A stretch of 64,000 bases of DNA, from positions 112,552 through 176,551 of the forward strand of contig JBAZZV010000004.1 of the NCBI GenBank assembly GCA_041658645.1. The letters are read 5' to 3'. Numbering within the stretch: position 1 is the first letter of the stretch; every line of letters starts with the position of its first letter. The DNA comes from Candidatus Margulisiibacteriota bacterium (GTDB lineage: Bacteria; Margulisbacteria; WOR-1; O2-12-FULL-45-9; XYB2-FULL-48-7). Shown piece by piece: positions 675 to 51,555 of this stretch. The translations under genes and the position numbers were made by a program. The notes under the pieces were generated by a model that was not told where the DNA came from, ran no database searches, and saw only the letters and a list, made by a program, of their open reading frames with translations.

Positions 675-727
675 CCCCTCTCCCTCTGGGAGAGGGGGGG
701 CAGGTTTAGCGTTGGCGGGTGAGGGCT
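675..727. repeat. Right half of nested-palindrome element (hairpin CCCCTCTCCC/GGGAGAGGGG + right arm GGGTGAGGGC)
   Basis: It matches the right halves of the full elements at 29490..29650 and 32306..32427. Confidence 0.85.
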
Positions 728-3756: not shown

Positions 3757-6282
3757 ATGGCTGACCAAAGCCCGATGGTCAAGCAATACCAGGAGATCAA
3801 GGCCCTCCACCAGGACGCTATCCTGTTTTTCCGTCTGGGTGATTTTTATGAGATGTTTTATGAGGACGCGGCTCTGGCTTCTCGCGAATTAGACCTGACG
3901 CTGACCGGCCGCGGCAAGGATGACAACCGGATGCCGATGTGCGGGCTCCCTTACCACGCGGCCGAAGGTTATATCGCCAAGCTGATCGAGAAAGGTTACA
4001 AGGTCGCGATCTGCGAACAGGTCGAAGATCCCGCCCAGGCTAAAGGTTTGGTTAAGCGCGATATTGTCCGGATAGTTACCCCCGGGACGGTCTTCGAAGC
4101 CTCCATGCTGGCCGAGAAGAGCAGTAATTACCTGATGGCGGTCAACCACGATAAGGGGAACTTCGGTTTGGCTTACGTTGACGCGACCACCGGCGAGTTC
4201 AAACTGGCTGACTTTGCTTCGTTCACTCAGCTGGCGGATGAGATCGCGCGGGTCAGTCCTGCTGAATTGCTTGTTTCAGATGTTTTTCCGCAAAACCTGG
4301 AACCGCGACGTTCAGTCGCAGGTTCCAAGTATAAAGATATTTACGACGGCGCGACGGCCGGCGAGAAACTTCTCGAGCATTTCCAGGTCAGGTCGCTCGA
4401 ATCGTTCGGTTTAACGGGGAAAGAAACGGCGCTGGGTGCGGCGGCCGCCATTATCGATTATTTGAAAGAGACGCAGAAGACGCGCCTCGACCATATTAAC
4501 AAACTCCAATATTACCGCCCGGCCGATTTTATGTTCATCGATACAGTGACCCGGCGAAATTTAGAATTAGTCCAAACGGCCCGCGATAAATCGGCGCGGG
4601 GGAGCTTGCTCAATGTCCTTGACCGGACGCGGACGCCGATGGGAGGGCGCTTGCTCCGGCAATGGCTCCTCCAGCCGCTCTTGAATGTGGCGGCGATCAA
4701 TGCTCGTCTGGACGCGGTGGAAGAATTGTTCCATCACGGCTTGAACCGCGCCGAGTTGAGCGCCGGCCTGAAAGATATCTTCGACTTGGAACGGCTGACC
4801 GGAAAAATCGCCAACCGTTCGGCTAACGCCCGCGACCTGGTCGCCCTGAAAGAATCGCTTCGCCAGCTCCCCAAGATCCGCGCCATTCTCTCCCGCTGTC
4901 AGGCTAAACTGCTGACCGATGGCGTGCTGGCCAGTGATACGGAACATTTTTCCACGGTCATCCAGCTGGTTGACCAGGCCATTGTCCCCGAACCACCGCT
5001 CCTCCTGAAAGAGGGTGGTTTGATCCGGTCGGGATACAACGCTGAACTTGATGAACTGAAGAGCGCTTCCGGCGGCGGCCGGCAATGGATCGCGGAACTA
5101 GAGGCGCAGGAGCGCCAGCGGACCGGGATCAAGTCGCTCAAGGTTGGCTATACCAGGGTCTTCGGTTATTACATCGAGGTATCGAATTCCAACCTCGAGT
5201 GGGTGCCGACCGATTATATCCGCAAACAGACGCTGGTCAATGCCGAACGATTCATCACCCCGGAATTGAAAGAGAAAGAGTCGTTCATCCTCAATGCCGA
5301 CGAGCGCTTGCAAGAGTTGGAATACCAGCTCTTCGGCGCGGTGCGTGATGGGGTGGCGGCGCATGTGCGCCAACTGCAGACGATGGCGGCGAAAGTCGCC
5401 GAGATCGACGTTCTCCTCTCTTTAGCCGAAGTGGCGGTGGAGAACCGTTATTGCCGGCCAGTTTTTGAGGATGTAGGGACAGGGCTTGTCCCTGTCCGTG
5501 GACAGCCACAAGGGCTGTCCCTACATATAAAAGAATCCCGCCATCCGGTCGTCGAAAAAACTTTAGGCGAGTTCCAGTTCGTCCCCAACGATGTCCGAAT
5601 GGCCGATGATTCCCGCTTCCTCCTGATCACCGGACCGAATATGGGGGGGAAGTCGACTTACATGAGACAGGTGGCGCTGATCAGCCTGTTGGCGCAAATG
5701 GGTTCGTTCGTTCCGGCGCAGCAAGCGGAGTTATGCCTGGTCGACCGGATCTTTTCCCGGATCGGGGCGATGGACGATATTTATTCCGGACAGTCGACCT
5801 TTATGGTCGAAATGACCGAGACCGCCAATATCCTAAATAACGCGACCGAGAGGAGCCTGATCATCCTGGACGAGATCGGGCGGGGGACCTCCACTTTTGA
5901 CGGGATGTCGATTGCCGCGGCGGTGGCCGAGTTTATCCACCAGAAGATCGGCGCCAAGACACTGTTCGCTACTCACTACCACGAGCTCACCCAACTGGCC
6001 GAGAAACACCCGGGGATGAAGAATTTGAATTTGCTGGTCACGGAATCGGGCGACCAGGTGACTTTTCTGCGCAAAGTGGGTGAGGGGCCGGCGGACCGGT
6101 CATACGGCATCCAGGTGGCCAAGTTGGCCGGCTTACCGCCGGAAGTAGTGGCCCGGGCCAAGGAAGTCTACGCGACGCTGGAAATGGTCGAGAACGACCT
6201 CGGACAAAAAAAGCCCTCCACAATCAAGAAGAAATCAGGTAAAATAAGTCCGGTCACTAAGGCGCAAGCCAGTTTGTTTTGA
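3757..6282 (+). CDS. mutS: DNA mismatch repair protein MutS
   Basis: 841 aa. N-terminal TPMMKQY-like MVKQYQEIK, Walker A GPNMGGKST, STFMVEM and DEIGRGTST motifs are present. Confidence 0.97.
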   Translation: MADQSPMVKQYQEIKALHQDAILFFRLGDFYEMFYEDAALASRELDLTLTGRGKDDNRMPMCGLPYHAAEGYIAKLIEKGYKVAICEQVEDPAQAKGLVKRDIVRIVTPGTVFEASMLAEKSSNYLMAVNHDKGNFGLAYVDATTGEFKLADFASFTQLADEIARVSPAELLVSDVFPQNLEPRRSVAGSKYKDIYDGATAGEKLLEHFQVRSLESFGLTGKETALGAAAAIIDYLKETQKTRLDHINKLQYYRPADFMFIDTVTRRNLELVQTARDKSARGSLLNVLDRTRTPMGGRLLRQWLLQPLLNVAAINARLDAVEELFHHGLNRAELSAGLKDIFDLERLTGKIANRSANARDLVALKESLRQLPKIRAILSRCQAKLLTDGVLASDTEHFSTVIQLVDQAIVPEPPLLLKEGGLIRSGYNAELDELKSASGGGRQWIAELEAQERQRTGIKSLKVGYTRVFGYYIEVSNSNLEWVPTDYIRKQTLVNAERFITPELKEKESFILNADERLQELEYQLFGAVRDGVAAHVRQLQTMAAKVAEIDVLLSLAEVAVENRYCRPVFEDVGTGLVPVRGQPQGLSLHIKESRHPVVEKTLGEFQFVPNDVRMADDSRFLLITGPNMGGKSTYMRQVALISLLAQMGSFVPAQQAELCLVDRIFSRIGAMDDIYSGQSTFMVEMTETANILNNATERSLIILDEIGRGTSTFDGMSIAAAVAEFIHQKIGAKTLFATHYHELTQLAEKHPGMKNLNLLVTESGDQVTFLRKVGEGPADRSYGIQVAKLAGLPPEVVARAKEVYATLEMVENDLGQKKPSTIKKKSGKISPVTKAQASLF
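5473..5524. repeat. Double-hairpin GTAG...CTAC palindrome embedded in frame in mutS
   Basis: Sequence is GTAGGGACAGGGCTTGTCCCTGTCCGTGGACAGCCACAAGGGCTGTCCCTAC. It has a 10-bp outer stem and two 8-bp inner hairpins and encodes VGTGLVPVRGQPQGLSL. Confidence 0.8.
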
Positions 6283-29489: not shown

Positions 29490-29650
29490 CAGCCCTCATC
29501 TAGACTCGTTGAGGATTAAGACCTTCTCCCAGGGGGAGAAGGGTTTTAAATAAAATATTGAAAGAAGTATCCGATAGGTTTGAAAAGATAATCGAAAATC
29601 CCTCTCCCTCTGGGAGAGGGGGGATACTATGCGTCAGCGGGTGAGGGCTG
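29490..29650. repeat. Full nested-palindrome element (161 nt)
   Basis: It has arms CAGCCCTCA / TGAGGGCTG and inner hairpins CCTTCTCCC/GGGAGAAGG and CCCTCTCCC/GGGAGAGGG, with an AT-rich centre. Confidence 0.85.
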
Positions 29651-31072: not shown

Positions 31073-32307
31073 TCAATTTCCGGATGCTGAAGCTGTCGGA
31101 CCCCGCGGTCTGGCTGGCGGTCGGCGGTCTTCTGCTGTTCGGTTTCCTGGCGATCTTTAGCGCGACCTATCGCTTGCAGATCAAAATCGGGGCCGACCCT
31201 TTTACCTACGTTATCCGCCAATTTCTCGCTTTGCTTGTAGCCGGAGCGGGGATCTCTTTTTTTGCTTATCTCGACTACCGGCATTTGCAGAAGGCGGCGG
31301 CTGTTTTATACGGGCTGACGCTGGTCCTTCTTCTGGTGGTCTTGTTCGGCGGCGCGGCCGCCTCCGGCGCGCAGCGCTGGATCGCCCTGGGTCCGCTCTC
31401 TTTCCAGCCGTCAGAACTATCCAAGCTGACCCTCATCATTATCCTGGCCGCTTTCCTCGCCCAGCGCCAAAAAGTTTCCGGCCTCTGGGAGACAGGGATT
31501 ATGCTGGCGCTGGTCGGGCTCCCTTTTCTAATGATCTTTAAACAGCCTGACCTGGGGACGGCGCTGGTCTTTATCGCCATCTTTGTCGGTATGCTGGCTC
31601 AAGCGGAATCTTCGCCGCGCCTGTTGATCCTCCTGGTGACGCCGTTCCTTTCCGTTCTCCTGCGACCCATTCTGCCGCTCTGGCTGGCCTATCTGGCCGT
31701 GCTCGTCCTGGTCCTTTTTTTGACCAGGGCCGAGTGGCTGGACTGGCTCCTGGTCCTCGGGGTTAACATCGGGGTGGGAGTTGCGGTACCTTATATGTGG
31801 GCGATGCTCAAGGGATACCAACAAAACCGGATAATTGCCTTCCTTAACCCGGCGGCCGACCCTTATGGCGCCGGTTATCATACGATGCAGAGCAAGATAG
31901 CCATCGGCGGGGGCGGCTTGTTCGGCAAAGGGTTCCTGCACGGCTCGCAGACGCAATTGCAATTCATTCCCGAACAGCATTCCGACTTTATCTTCTCGGT
32001 GATCGGGGAGGAGTTTGGCTTGCTCGGTTCGCTCCTGGTCGTTGCCCTGTTCGGGGTGCTGATTTGGCGGGCGCTGGTCATCGCCGACGGGGCTCGCGAT
32101 CGTTTTGGGAAAATGCTGGCGAGCGGAGTGGCGGTCATGCTCGTCTTTCACGTCTTGGCTAACATCGGGATGGCCCTCGGCTTGCTGCCGGTAGTGGGGA
32201 TACCTTTGCCGCTGTTAAGCTACGGCGGCTCGTCGCTCTTCATGACCCTGGCCGCCCTCGGGATATTGCAGAGCGTGGCGATGCGCCGGCATAAGCTGAT
32301 ATTTTAG
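31069..32307 (+). CDS. rodA: SEDS-family peptidoglycan polymerase (RodA-like)
   Basis: 412 aa and polytopic, with SFQPSELSKL, KQPDLGTAL, PEQHSDFIFSVIGEEFGL and GIPLPLLSYGGSS. It lies outside the dcw cluster, so I call it RodA rather than FtsW. Confidence 0.85.
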   Translation: MINFRMLKLSDPAVWLAVGGLLLFGFLAIFSATYRLQIKIGADPFTYVIRQFLALLVAGAGISFFAYLDYRHLQKAAAVLYGLTLVLLLVVLFGGAAASGAQRWIALGPLSFQPSELSKLTLIIILAAFLAQRQKVSGLWETGIMLALVGLPFLMIFKQPDLGTALVFIAIFVGMLAQAESSPRLLILLVTPFLSVLLRPILPLWLAYLAVLVLVLFLTRAEWLDWLLVLGVNIGVGVAVPYMWAMLKGYQQNRIIAFLNPAADPYGAGYHTMQSKIAIGGGGLFGKGFLHGSQTQLQFIPEQHSDFIFSVIGEEFGLLGSLLVVALFGVLIWRALVIADGARDRFGKMLASGVAVMLVFHVLANIGMALGLLPVVGIPLPLLSYGGSSLFMTLAALGILQSVAMRRHKLIF

Positions 32308-32427
32308 CCCTCATCCGTGGCGTTGAGGATACGCACCTTCTCCCAGAGGGAGAAGGTGTTATGCAAGGCAACATACCCTCTCCCTTTGGGAGAGGGTGAG
32401 AGTGTTAAGGGAGTCGGGTGAGGGTTG
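32306..32427. repeat. Full nested-palindrome element (122 nt)
   Basis: Same architecture as 29490..29650. The left arm AGCCCTCA overlaps the rodA TAG stop. Confidence 0.85.
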
Positions 32428-38325: not shown

Positions 38326-38392
38326 ACCCCTAACCCCTCTTCTCCCCTTCCCCCTTATTAAGGGGGAAGGGGATGGGGGATAGGGGTGAAGG
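38326..38392. repeat. GC-rich nested palindrome (CCCCTTCCCCCTTA/TAAGGGGGAAGGGG core)
   Basis: A 14-bp perfect inverted repeat is flanked by ACCCCTA / TAGGGGT outer arms. It is a relative of the nested-palindrome family. Confidence 0.75.
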
Positions 38393-46783: not shown

Positions 46784-46800
46784 CGGCGGTAGGGTATTCG

Positions 46801-46855
46801 CAGCCCTCACCCTAGACGAGTTGAGCTTGTGCCCCCTCTCCCAGAGGGAGAGGGG
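46801..46855. repeat. Left half of nested-palindrome element (arm CAGCCCTCACCC + hairpin CCCCTCTCCC/GGGAGAGGGG)
   Basis: It matches the left halves of 29490..29650 and 32306..32427. It is followed 8 nt later by double-hairpin copy 2. Confidence 0.85.
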
Positions 46856-46863
46856 TAAAAAAA

Positions 46864-46917
46864 GTAGCGGCGGTCTTTAGACCGCCATTTGGATGGCGAC
46901 CTGAAGGTCGCCGCTAC
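46864..46917. repeat. Double-hairpin GTAG...CTAC palindromic element, copy 2
   Basis: Sequence is GTAGCGGCGGTCTTTAGACCGCCATTTGGATGGCGACCTGAAGGTCGCCGCTAC. It is near-identical to 609..661 and in the same orientation. Confidence 0.9.
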
Positions 46918-46969
46918 ATTTCGGAACCGATCGTTGCAAGGTGAATAAAGGCCGCCATTTAGGAGCAGC

Positions 46970-48997: not shown

Positions 48998-50620
48998 ATG
49001 GCTCAACAGCGACTGGCGCAACTTGTTCGGGCGGCGCTGGCAGCCCTCGGCGTACCAGAGCCGCTCCCCTTTAAGGTCGAGAGCTCCCCGCGCAAGGAGT
49101 ACGGCGATTATGCCGTCAACGCGGCGATCATCGGCGCGAAGAAGTTTTCCCGCAATCCTCTGGAGCTGGCTGCCGAGCTGTCGGCCAAGATCAAGGAATT
49201 GGATGCCGGCCAGCTCATCGCCAAACTTGATATAGTCAAACCCGGCTTTATCAATATTTTCCTCAAAGACGCTTACCTGCAACAAAATCTTTGCCAGATT
49301 ATTGAACAGGACCATAACTATGGGATGGGAAAGCGACTGACGATTGACGACGGACGACCGATGACTGTTTTGCTCGAGTTTGTTTCAGCCAACCCAACAG
49401 GACCCCTCCACGTCGGCCACGGCCGCTGGGCGGTGGTCGGCGACGTGATCGCCCGGCTCCTGCGGGCCGATGGCTGGGCGGTCAGTACCGAATTCTACGT
49501 CAATAATGTCGGCAATCAGGTCGAGAAACTCTGGCTCTCCGTCCAGGCGGCCCGGGCCGGCCAGCCTGTTCCGGAGGGGGGCTATGGCGGAGTTTATATC
49601 AAAGACGTCGAGGGGGAGACCAAGGCAGAAGCCCTGGCTTCGATCCTGGCCGGGCAGAAGCAGGCGCTGGCCCAGGTCGGGGTAAGTTTTGATAATTTCT
49701 TTTTTGAAAATACATTACATGATGCTGGCAAGGTCCGCGGAGCGGTCAAACAGTTAGAGGTGATGGGGAAGACGGTCATCGAGGGTGGGGCGGTCTGGTT
49801 TAAATCGCAGGAGATGGGGGACGACAAGAACCGGGTCCTGATCAAGGAAGACGGACTGTCGACCTATTTTGCCGCCGACATCGCTTATCATCTCGATAAG
49901 TTCCAGCGCGGTTTCCACCGGCTGATCAACATCTGGGGAGCCGACCACCACGGTTACGTCAAACGGTTGAAGGCGGCGCTCCAGGCGCTTGGCCTGCCGG
50001 TCGAGAACTTCGATATTATCATCGGCCAGCTGGTCACGCTCTACCGGGGGGAGGAGCCGGTCAGGATGTCGAAGCGGACCGGCGAAATGGTCACCCTCCA
50101 GGAAGTGCTCGATGAGGTCGGCTCGGACGCGACCCGGTTCTTCTTCGCGGCGACCGACGTTAACTCCCATCTTGATTTTGACCTAGAACTGGCCAAGAAA
50201 AAATCGAACGATAATCCGGTCTACTACGTCCAGTACGCGCACGCGAGGATTTGCAGTATCCTGAAGAAATCCGCCTCACCCCCTTCCGTCCCCCTCTCCA
50301 TCAAAGATGGAGAGGGGGAAACTCCGACGATAGTCGGAGAGGGGGTGAGGATTGATCTATCCGCATTGAAGCATCCGGCTGAGCGAGAACTAATGCTTAA
50401 GCTGTTAACCTGGCCAGAGATGGTTAGCCTGGCCGCGCGACTGCGCCAGCCGCACCGGATCACCGAATATGGCAAGGAGCTGGCGATCGTTTTTCACCAC
50501 TTTTACGAGCAGTGCCGCGTGCTGGGTGATCCGTCGAGAATAGTGCTGGTAAATGCTTCTCGAATCACCCTCCGGAATGTGTTAGAATTACTGGGAATAA
50601 CGGCCCCGGAATCAATGTAG
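48998..50620 (+). CDS. argS: Arginine--tRNA ligase
   Basis: 540 aa with SANPTGPLHVGHGR (HIGH), the MSKR-type KMSKS motif VRMSKRTG, and a DALR anticodon-binding domain. Confidence 0.96.
   Translation: MAQQRLAQLVRAALAALGVPEPLPFKVESSPRKEYGDYAVNAAIIGAKKFSRNPLELAAELSAKIKELDAGQLIAKLDIVKPGFINIFLKDAYLQQNLCQIIEQDHNYGMGKRLTIDDGRPMTVLLEFVSANPTGPLHVGHGRWAVVGDVIARLLRADGWAVSTEFYVNNVGNQVEKLWLSVQAARAGQPVPEGGYGGVYIKDVEGETKAEALASILAGQKQALAQVGVSFDNFFFENTLHDAGKVRGAVKQLEVMGKTVIEGGAVWFKSQEMGDDKNRVLIKEDGLSTYFAADIAYHLDKFQRGFHRLINIWGADHHGYVKRLKAALQALGLPVENFDIIIGQLVTLYRGEEPVRMSKRTGEMVTLQEVLDEVGSDATRFFFAATDVNSHLDFDLELAKKKSNDNPVYYVQYAHARICSILKKSASPPSVPLSIKDGEGETPTIVGEGVRIDLSALKHPAERELMLKLLTWPEMVSLAARLRQPHRITEYGKELAIVFHHFYEQCRVLGDPSRIVLVNASRITLRNVLELLGITAPESM
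50274..50350. repeat. Nested-palindrome element inserted in frame in argS
   Basis: It has arms CCTCACCCCC / GGGGGTGAGG and inner hairpins CCCCCTCTCCAT/ATGGAGAGGGGG and CTCCGAC/GTCGGAG. It encodes ASPPSVPLSIKDGEGETPTIVGEGVR. Confidence 0.85.
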
Positions 50621-50640
50621 CGGAGCGGAGGGTCCCGGCA

Positions 50641-51555
50641 ATGAAATACGCGTTTTTTAAAGATAAAATAGTCCCGTTTAGCGAAGCCAAGATCGGTATC
50701 ATGACCCACGCTTTTAACTACGGGACCGGCGTCTTCGAAGGGATCCGCGGCTACTGGAACGCCGAAAAGAGCCAGATGTATATCGTCAAGCTGCGGGAGC
50801 ATTATGAGCGGCTGGAACGATCGACGAAACTGGCGCTGAAAAGCACGCTTAAATACTCCCTCTCGGAACTGGAAAACATCACCGTCGAACTGGCGAGAAA
50901 AAACGACTATCGCGAGGACATTTATCTCCGCCCGATCTATTATAAATCACAGGAAAAGATCGGTCTGGGGCTGATCGGCGTAGAAGAGGATTTCTGCCTC
51001 TTTGTTTCGCCCTTCGGCGCTTATCTCGACATAACCAAGGGGATCAGGGTCTGCGTTTCCTCCTGGTGGCGGATCTCCGAAAAGTCGGCGCCGCAGGGGG
51101 CCAAGATCACCGGCAGTTACTTTAATTCTTCGCTGGCCAAGGCGGAAGCGCTGGAAAAGGGTTTTGACGAAGCGATCCTCCTGTCGCACGAAAAGACCGT
51201 GGCCGAGGGGTCGGGCGAAAACCTATTTATGGTTAAGAATGGACAACTGGTTACCCCGCCGCTTTCGGAAACGATCCTCCCCGGCATTACTCGGGTTTGT
51301 GTCATGACCCTGGCGGCCAAGGAGCTGGGAATCAAGACGGTAGAACGGCAGGTGAAGCAGGCTGAACTGTACACGGCCGATGAGCTCTTTTTCTGCGGCA
51401 CCGGCGCCCAGATCTCGCCGATCGTTGATGTCGACGGCAAAAAGATCGGCGACGGTAAGCCCGGTTCGATCACGCGGAAATTACAGAAAATTTATTTTGC
51501 CGCGGCGCGCGGCGATAATCCCAAATACGCCGATTGGGTTACGCCGGTTTATTAG
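50641..51555 (+). CDS. ilvE: Branched-chain amino acid aminotransferase (fold type IV)
   Basis: 304 aa with GVFEGIRGY, a Lys-region pattern containing KITGSYFNS, EGSGENLF and PGITR. Confidence 0.9.
   Translation: MKYAFFKDKIVPFSEAKIGIMTHAFNYGTGVFEGIRGYWNAEKSQMYIVKLREHYERLERSTKLALKSTLKYSLSELENITVELARKNDYREDIYLRPIYYKSQEKIGLGLIGVEEDFCLFVSPFGAYLDITKGIRVCVSSWWRISEKSAPQGAKITGSYFNSSLAKAEALEKGFDEAILLSHEKTVAEGSGENLFMVKNGQLVTPPLSETILPGITRVCVMTLAAKELGIKTVERQVKQAELYTADELFFCGTGAQISPIVDVDGKKIGDGKPGSITRKLQKIYFAAARGDNPKYADWVTPVY

Follow-up and report, generated by a model that had tools for sequence, protein, structure and literature searches.

In-frame nested palindrome in the arginyl-tRNA synthetase gene of a Margulisbacteria genome and recurrence of such repeats at the same linker in related lineages

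The arginyl-tRNA synthetase gene (argS) in a 64,000-nucleotide (nt) stretch of DNA from a Candidatus Margulisiibacteriota bacterium (assembly GCA_041658645.1, contig JBAZZV010000004.1; the whole stretch is called the window) carries a nested palindrome of 77 nt in frame at positions 50274-50350, and comparable palindromes recur at the same junction of the gene in several relatives within Margulisbacteria, a candidate phylum that is sister to Cyanobacteria. We regard this segment as very probably a copy of a dispersed, GC-rich nested-palindrome family that is read through as a passenger in a permissive linker, which would also be a preferred landing site. The element would have ended up in a linker of the enzyme (ArgRS) that is variable by nature and connects the catalytic domain with the anticodon-binding domain, and would not be removed, the ribosome presumably reading through it in one of three stop-free frames; the result would be a disordered surface loop on an otherwise intact ArgRS, and the element itself a neutral or slightly costly passenger rather than a functional module. 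A linker that is both permissive and preferred may go through rounds in which elements arrive, decay by deletion and are lost, as suggested by the fresh perfect, half-deleted and remnant copies that were found at this junction together with other repeat types (heptamer arrays, GTAG..CTAC hairpins). Repeats with this block plan are referred to below as TM units or TM-type repeats.

The host gene and the parts of the element, the latter located with an inverted-repeat finder, are as follows:

48998..50620, forward strand: argS (arginyl-tRNA synthetase), 540 amino acids (aa), intact host gene, based on the open reading frame (ORF) list, Pfam, alignment and AlphaFold2
50274..50350, forward strand: nested palindromic element, 77 nt, in frame, encoding ArgRS residues 426-451
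50274..50284, forward strand: left outer arm CCTCACCCCCT, an arm type that also opens four intergenic copies
50289..50319, forward strand: hairpin 1, TCCCCCTCTCCATC-AAA-GATGGAGAGGGGGA (C block / G block)
50322..50339, forward strand: hairpin 2, CTCCGAC-GATA-GTCGGAG, the variable middle part
50340..50350, forward strand: right outer arm AGGGGGTGAGG, a mirror "third block" of the G block

The complete layout is CCTCACCCCCT-TCCG-TCCCCCTCTCCATC-AAA-GATGGAGAGGGGGA-AA-CTCCGAC-GATA-GTCGGAG-AGGGGGTGAGG, in which three nested pairs are 100% complementary: the outer arms with 11 nt (50274-50284 / 50340-50350), the arms of hairpin 1 with 14 nt around a 3-nt loop (50289-50302 / 50306-50319), and those of hairpin 2 with 7 nt around a 4-nt loop (50322-50328 / 50333-50339). 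An alternative pairing joins CCCCCTCTCC (50290-50299) with GGAGAGGGGG at 50336-50345. Folded as RNA, the element had a minimum free energy of -63.9 kcal/mol, compared with -33.1 ± 3.7 kcal/mol in 200 dinucleotide shuffles (z = -8.3), none of which folded as well. The initial annotation, made from the letters of the window, had described a nested palindrome at these positions and had named a failure of the region to be palindromic on computational inspection as grounds for giving up the claim; the letters, the three perfect pairs and the fold energy all bear the description out.

The 540-aa product of argS has the Pfam domains Arg_tRNA_synt_N, tRNA-synt_1d and DALR_1, and its HIGH (H138-G140-H141) and MSK (M357-S358-K359) residues are invariant in the ArgRS ortholog alignment. 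The element thus lies in frame in an intact ORF with all ArgRS domains and catalytic motifs, as had been proposed. Three of its six frames are stop-free, and argS uses one of those three. The insert reads (A)SPPSVPLSIKDGEGETPTIVGEGVR, exactly the translation quoted earlier, preceded by YVQYAHARICSILKK and followed by IDLSALKHPAEREL, and the predicted tryptic peptides of the region are SASPPSVPLSIK and DGEGETPTIVGEGVR. An AlphaFold2 model of ArgRS, run on a 25-sequence alignment, reached a mean predicted local distance difference test (pLDDT) score of 89.5 and a predicted template-modelling score of 0.88, and superposed on the Campylobacter jejuni ArgRS structure (3FNR) with a template-modelling score of 0.87 and on 2ZUE, 1IQ0 and 5B63 with scores of 0.65-0.77. 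Residues 429-450 are the sole segment of the model with pLDDT < 50, situated between the last helix of the catalytic domain (407-426) and the first helix of the anticodon-binding domain (460-470), and the aligned C. jejuni structure has a 17-residue gap at the insert position. The alignment flanks and the modelled helices agree on the location between the two domains, and the structure modelling that had been suggested as a check for a surface loop points to the same segment. In the Margulisbacteria ortholog alignment, the flanking stretches YVQYAHARICSILKK and DLSxLxHPAEREL are near-invariant and the stretch between them is hypervariable. The sister ortholog (P0001/L002), which shares 75% identity with the window protein and groups with it at a Shimodaira-Hasegawa-like approximate likelihood-ratio test support of 99, has no insert: between the identical flanks AAATCCG and ATTGATCTATC it has 23 other bases where the argS element has 77 nt, which gives a net gain of 18 codons. 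The "~26-aa insertion" of the initial annotation therefore holds for the number of residues encoded and for their place, the alignment having its extra residues exactly at the linker and the sister ortholog lacking them, while the net gain has to be corrected to ~18 aa, as 77 nt replace 23. Judged from the model, the insert would be a Pro/Ser/Gly/Glu-rich disordered surface loop of ~26 residues (net ~+18).

An unrelated insert was seen at the same linker point in a betaproteobacterial ArgRS (P0198, 704 aa), where 147 residues without a Pfam family are placed after HARICSVLEQW and before ADLSCLTNPAA; its 557-aa relatives do not have them. Because of this 147-residue insert at the same point, the argS linker appears to be generally permissive.

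In the window, the family block pattern CCTCACCC-N0-25-CCCTCTCC-N3-12-GGAGARGG had five matches, compared with 0 expected from shuffles, one of them the argS copy and the other four intergenic (676-724, 29600-29646, 32376-32423, and 46805-46854). Since a search for identical sub-sequences found no second near-identical copy of the element in the 64-kb window, its family membership is visible only with the block pattern. The earlier statement, which equated its arms and hairpins with those of the intergenic family, can be kept for the block architecture CCTCACCC-N-CCCTCTCC-loop-GGAGARGG, which is shared with all four intergenic copies, and has to be dropped as regards near-identical letters. 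The intergenic copies extend as follows:

676..724, reverse strand: intergenic family copy (arm plus CCCTCTCCC hairpin), adjoining a GTAG..CTAC double hairpin
29490..29646, forward strand: intergenic full-length family copy with arm GCCCTCATC, two inner hairpins and arm GGGTGAGGGC
32306..32425, forward strand: intergenic full-length family copy with arms and two inner hairpins; fold -78.5 kcal/mol
46803..46856, forward strand: intergenic family copy within a 186-nt insertion between genes that overlap in relatives

The full intergenic members (e.g., 32306-32425) have arms GCCCTCAYC / GGGTGAGGGC around one or two CCYTCTCCC/GGGAGARGG hairpins, which is also the plan of the argS copy. As read from the letters, the family plan is an arm CCTCACCC, one or two inner CCCTCTCC/GGAGAGGG hairpins and an arm GGGTGAGG.

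The intergenic copies, too, appear to be mobile. A composite of 186 nt at 46784-46969 (a TM unit plus a GTAG..CTAC double hairpin) separates the gene of the transketolase C-terminal subunit from that of dCMP deaminase, two genes that overlap by 4 nt in L002, L205, L206, and L208, and with the insert the deaminase gene gains a new AGGAG ribosome-binding site and an ATG. Conversely, L208 has a full element between its deaminase and pheA genes, where the window has none. Close relatives sharing the ArgRS segment while lacking the intergenic repeats had been named as evidence that would overturn the claim; in the closest relative, both the ArgRS segment and the copy between the transketolase and deaminase genes are missing.

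The organism is present in two independent public metagenomes, one from groundwater (word depth ~113) and one from landfill (~1250). In both of them, upstream argS continues into the left arm and hairpin 1 on one contig, and both hairpins and the right arm continue into downstream argS on another, each with zero differences. The 31-mers of hairpin 1 occur at several-fold the depth of the organism in both metagenomes, and the identical hairpin 1 also forms the end of further unitigs whose depth is like that of the organism and whose flanks differ, one of them also carrying the same left arm with a single difference. Hairpin unitigs at such depth with other flanks imply at least 2-3 further copies in the genome, so that membership of a dispersed repeat family is supported by these loci as well as by the block pattern in the window. 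A block-pattern scan of 185,579 species genomes yielded at least 120 loci with 161 pattern matches in them, which span Planctomycetota, Chloroflexota, Proteobacteria, Cyanobacteria, Bacteroidota, Verrucomicrobiota, and others; by its block pattern, the repeat class is apparently pan-bacterial.

Several further observations concern these repeats and their surroundings. Within the mutS ORF of the window (3757-6282), an in-frame GTAG...CTAC double-hairpin palindrome (GTAGGGACAGGGCTTGTCCCTGTCC / GGACAGCCACAAGGGCTGTCCCTAC) at 5473-5524 is translated VGTGLVPVRGQPQGLSLH, and a related but distinct intergenic nested palindrome (ACCCCTAACCCCTCTTCTCCCCTTCCCCCTTA-TT-AAGGGGGAAGGGGATGGGGGATAGGGGT) directly follows a terminator-like hairpin at 38326-38392. 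At L134 (950-1180), TM arms and two hairpins surround an AT-rich piece of ~110 nt, and a small ORF runs into the second hairpin, an arrangement showing that members of the family can contain a variable middle part. A second strain, present in the groundwater metagenome at ~1/4 depth, has many synonymous-looking differences in argS and the next gene (50356-50766), and appears to share the junction between element and gene. An IMG/VR viral contig (L210, 2186-2230) has an arm and hairpin very like the argS copy (CCTCACCCCC-GT-CCCCTCTCCATCG-ACTT-CGATGGAGAGGGG) just downstream of a capsid-like ORF; this was the sole viral match, and the canonical 56-nt copy described below was not found in viral contigs.

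The best 120 homologs of the window ArgRS all belong to Candidatus Margulisbacteria/Saganbacteria (WOR-1), with 50-75% identity, and their relationships were inferred from an ortholog tree built without the linker columns. TM-type peptides or palindromes occupy the argS linker junction in 9 of 119 Margulisbacteria orthologs. Each carrier is isolated on the tree, so that nine changes are needed; restricting the tree to branches with support of at least 95 and resolving polytomies in favour of clustering leaves eight. Three carriers from separate clades (L204, L205, and L207) each have a canonical 56-nt nested palindrome, CCCTCACCCCCC-N-TCCCCCTCTCCC-NNN-GGGAGAGGGGGA-GAAGA-GGGGGTGAGGG, and these copies are identical at 53-55 of 56 positions, as against a third-codon identity of 44-46% in 510 nt of argS on the flanks. 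The window copy agrees in its left arm and hairpin 1 with L001, a member of a different clade, at 39 of 42 positions, as against a third-position identity of 51-60%, and the L001 hairpin is identical to hairpin 1 of the window at 28 of 29 positions; hairpin 2 is missing from L001 and from the canonical 56-nt copies of relatives.

Other carriers show stages of decay: the arms are mismatched in L209, the left arm is lost in L206, and half of the hairpin is deleted in L208, whose relative L144 still has it complete, while L203, the next relative of the window, retains the arms only (GCCCTCACCC-AGG-GGTGGGGG). The reading frame of the C block differs among lineages (PLS, PSPLPEGEG, PSPSPRGRG), and in L207, L208, and L144 the arm directly abuts AER. 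In an unbiased set of 80 metagenome loci, two of the four CCCTCTCC hairpins lay in the argS linker, which makes up < 3% of the DNA. The patchy distribution at one site, together with an identity of the elements far above that of the neutral flanks, is not explained by neutral vertical descent. It is in keeping with elements having arrived repeatedly, through homing-like transfer or as copies made from other places in the genome, and having then decayed by deletion, which would make the argS linker a recurrent landing site across the phylum and goes beyond the reading of the initial annotation.

In most lineages, heptamer arrays that start from conserved AAATCC(G) codons occupy the linker. The usual form (L123, L136, L002, and most others) is a short array of 7-nt units (AAATCCG, AAATCCT, CATTCCG ...) from conserved Lys-Ser codons, which reads SEIRNPKSEQG and variants and looks like local slippage. 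In L211, the linker contains a GTAG-type hairpin, a half copy (GTAGGGACAACCCTTGTGGTTGTCCC) of the family found in mutS of the window, and in L146 an unrelated perfect hairpin. The linker of L139 (2722-2820) has an in-frame stop (…GMGNGA*VKISEL…), which could be a sequencing error, a pseudogene or a case of recoding.

Among the other explanations, a single ancient insertion has most in its favour. It could have been passed on by vertical descent, with the hairpin kept as useful (as a translational pause, for mRNA stability, or as a DNA structural signal) and lost from most lineages. The right junction GGTGAGG|ATTGATCT is common to the argS element and its relatives and, in the form GGTGAGG(G)|NTGATCT (GVR|xDLS), is identical in the window, L204, L205, L206, and L209; such a shared junction and reading frame in five lineages would also be compatible with one old insertion that selection or gene conversion has kept uniform, the RNA fold is very stable, and conservation far above that of neutral flank sites is expected under selection too. 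We nevertheless consider this explanation improbable, given that ~90% of the orthologs, including the sister, have no element and that unrelated repeat families are found in the same linker of other lineages, while hairpins identical to that of argS lie at unrelated, apparently non-coding loci of the organism. As the principal account it is rejected in view of the identity of 53-55/56 against ~45% at third positions, the at least eight tree changes, the three different frames of the C block, and the decay of several copies (arm mismatches, half deletions, arms only). The passenger account with repeated arrival has, besides the shared junction, some further points to its disadvantage: no target-site duplication, a trait of MITEs (miniature inverted-repeat transposable elements), is recognizable as a direct repeat at the junctions of the window copy, L204, L205, or L207; no transposase or nuclease was found in the 64-kb window, so that mobility is deduced from the distribution only; no RNA run contains the argS gene, and we infer the translation of the insert; and no joint skipping the argS element was seen in the two metagenomes, in which Logan contigs drop rare variants and could hide a subpopulation with an empty site.

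The missing target-site duplication would also suit a palindrome that arose locally by replication error (template switching, snap-back synthesis, or slippage) instead of coming from a dispersed element, and the linkers of neighbouring relatives do consist of heptamer arrays resembling slippage from AAATCC(G) codons. Such an origin is nonetheless very unlikely and largely refuted, as the same 50-70 nt cannot be produced again and again by replication error: these arm and hairpin blocks also stand at four intergenic sites of the window, the identical 31-nt hairpin at other loci of the organism, near-identical 56-nt copies in distant relatives, and the block pattern in many phyla. Still less credit can be given to an assembly artefact in which the argS halves were joined via the repeated hairpin and the true locus is a larger insert or a split gene. 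Unitigs with k = 31 do break inside hairpin 1 in both metagenomes, the hairpin node having more than one way in and out; against this stand the zero-difference contigs of the two samples, which tie the left arm and hairpin 1 to upstream argS and the hairpins and right arm to downstream argS, the frame kept across the join, the order of argS and the ilvE-like gene, which agrees with that in relatives, and the comparable inserts at the same place in independently assembled relatives. We find it equally hard to believe that the insert is removed after transcription or translation in the manner of an intron or intein, leaving a mature ArgRS without it. Nothing direct favours this reading, which is considered only because the initial annotation had brought up removal and because strong terminal pairing brings the two junctions together, whereas Rfam found no intron or other RNA family at 49900-50700, 26 residues are far too few for an intein and contain no splicing motifs, the preserved host frame and a stop-free used frame would be needless if the insert were excised as RNA, and decayed copies in relatives stay in frame.

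A hint of how passengers of this type could be mobilized comes from loci outside Margulisbacteria. Long ORFs contain several of the 161 matches from the 120 foreign loci (HsdR-, nitrilase-like, PrmC-like, Mfd, and E3-linker contexts), with in-frame copies in HsdR-, nitrilase- and methyltransferase-like ORFs, and at three loci two inverted TM units bracket a complete DUF559 domain (PF04480, a Vsr-like nuclease) in frame with the host protein, with Pfam E-values of 1e-30 to 1e-34:

L006, 1307-1794: DUF559 cassette in MetRS of a Variovorax metagenome-assembled genome (MAG), bracketed by two TM units
L034, 2111-2649: DUF559 cassette in MetRS of another betaproteobacterium, bracketed by two TM units
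L070, 6629-7083: DUF559 cassette in LeuRS of a Cytophagales MAG, bracketed by two TM units

The order in L070 is arm-hairpin-DUF559-hairpin-arm, which without the nuclease is a nested palindrome as in argS. With a small profile, a DUF559 domain was found to adjoin the CCTCACCC/CCCTCTCC unit in 11 of the 120 pattern-fetched loci, in nine of them within ~160 nt; the window and 89 Margulisbacteria argS loci yielded none. Among the matches listed in two chimera-guided protein searches, DUF559 occurred in LeuRS, IleRS, > 100 MetRS clusters, a MutS, methylases, an asparagine synthase, and other proteins. Neither search brought up an ArgRS with such a cassette; their sensitivity was low, the first reaching only near relatives of the nuclease it started from and the second being dominated by MetRS. 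In the literature consulted, DUF559 (EDxHD-type) is mentioned only in passing, the hairpin-ended cassettes figuring solely in domain listings (PMC3424549), and it has been placed in the Vsr clade with the homing endonuclease I-Bth0305I (PMC3239194). The argS element has no nuclease, whereas the same TM units flank the DUF559 cassettes; its patchy distribution at one site, with high conservation, is reminiscent of homing. The DUF559 Vsr-like nuclease, whose gene has these units on its flanks in other places, is for that reason the leading candidate for the mobilizing enzyme. A bolder reading, which we hold to be possible though rather doubtful, is that the argS linker is a homing-type site and that triplex palindromes are the terminal hairpins of read-through cassettes with DUF559 as their only gene, solo palindromes being nuclease-less survivors. 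If so, the fresh, half-deleted and bare-arm copies at the argS linker would show, at a single moment, the stages of a homing cycle that runs within an essential gene, and the stop-free ends coding for Pro and Gly would let the elements live in protein linkers. To our knowledge, the BoxC, PIT, and TM-ECO palindromes have been unexplained since the 1990s; the DUF559 link suggests in a testable way how TM/BoxC/PIT repeats may move.

The assignment to a TM/BoxC/PIT-like class, the repeated occupation of the argS junction, the decay series and the DUF559 link are additions to the initial annotation. In-frame colonization of essential genes by palindromic repeats is textbook knowledge only for Rickettsia, and it is met here in a free-living candidate phylum and with a different, far more widespread class of repeats. 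One defined junction of a universal enzyme with fresh, decaying and lost copies over > 100 lineages offers a rare natural time series for gain and loss and for the cost to the protein. In addition, such inserts inflate and diversify housekeeping proteins in MAGs, break k-mer assemblies inside genes, and create spurious "hypothetical" peptides rich in P/S/G/E.

Among known repeats, the element comes closest in plan to the TM-ECO/BoxC/PIT "intrastrand triplex" repeats (Hoyne et al. 2000; Holder et al. 2015). The TM-ECO pattern is CCCTCNCCC N3-6 GGGNGAGGG N3 GGGNGAGGG, and its copies in Escherichia coli, which all lie between genes, show extraordinary conservation, are associated with local instability and have no known function (Holder et al. 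2015, PMC4666352). The three-block plan is common to both, with a C-rich block, a complementary G-rich block, and a second G/T-rich block mirroring the first G block. On its minus strand, the argS element reads CCCCCTCTCC-9-GGAGAGGGGG-6-GGGGGTGAGG, in which all 10 positions could form G.GC, A.AT, or T.AT triads, as the triplex class requires, and the intergenic copies read CCCTCTCCC / GGGAGAGGG / GGGTGAGG, which fits the same three-block logic. The extraordinary conservation between copies and genomes, the lack of a known mobilizing gene and the local genomic instability are likewise shared. The strict TM-ECO pattern, in contrast, matches none of the copies: the four intergenic ones fit it only if 1-25 nt are allowed for loop 2, their second loops measuring 14-23 nt instead of the published 3 nt (loop 1: 3-6), and the argS copy fails even the relaxed pattern, with CCCTCTCCA in place of CCCTCNCCC and a first spacer of 9 nt. 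Unlike TM-ECO/BoxC/PIT, the present family adds a fourth block, the left arm, which turns it into a nested palindrome and in which Watson-Crick pairing of the outer arms would compete with triplex formation, and the argS copy lies inside a gene and is presumably read through, whereas TM-ECO is intergenic in E. coli. As the three-block logic is present and the strict loop rule is violated, we file the argS element as a probable variant of the TM-ECO/BoxC/PIT class and not as a member of TM-ECO proper.

The repetitive extragenic palindromic (REP) sequences with their mosaic and hairpin-forming assemblies (BIME, REPIN; associated with RAYT) and MITEs (Correia, Nezha, ERIC) are also small, non-autonomous, hairpin-forming dispersed repeats, mostly intergenic, sometimes nested and occasionally in frame. 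The terminal inverted repeats of MITEs have a counterpart in the perfect 11-nt outer arms of the argS element, whereas its arms are homopurine/homopyrimidine runs, unlike REP sequences. No RAYT or IS parent was seen, the whole genome lying outside the scan.

In its behaviour, the element resembles the Rickettsia palindromic elements (RPEs; Ogata et al. 2000; reviewed in PMC10969869), which are likewise short palindromic repeats found both intergenically and in frame in essential genes. The window has four intergenic copies and one in-frame copy in a conserved gene, and RPEs and the argS element alike would be translated into an additional surface segment that the protein tolerates. RPEs have reportedly been found in aminoacyl-tRNA synthetase and other housekeeping genes. 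They are ~100-150 nt long and AT-rich, whereas the present family is a GC-rich C-run/G-run nested hairpin of 56-77 nt, a different sequence class, and they belong to Rickettsiales, whereas the present host is a free-living member of Margulisbacteria from groundwater and landfill. The RPE-like process proposed in the initial annotation can thus be upheld as an analogy of behaviour, the palindrome itself being of the GC-rich TM/BoxC/PIT-like type: the argS element seems to work like an RPE, while membership would not be expected from its composition and host. A further difference from RPEs is that here the same junction of one gene has been occupied repeatedly in separate lineages.

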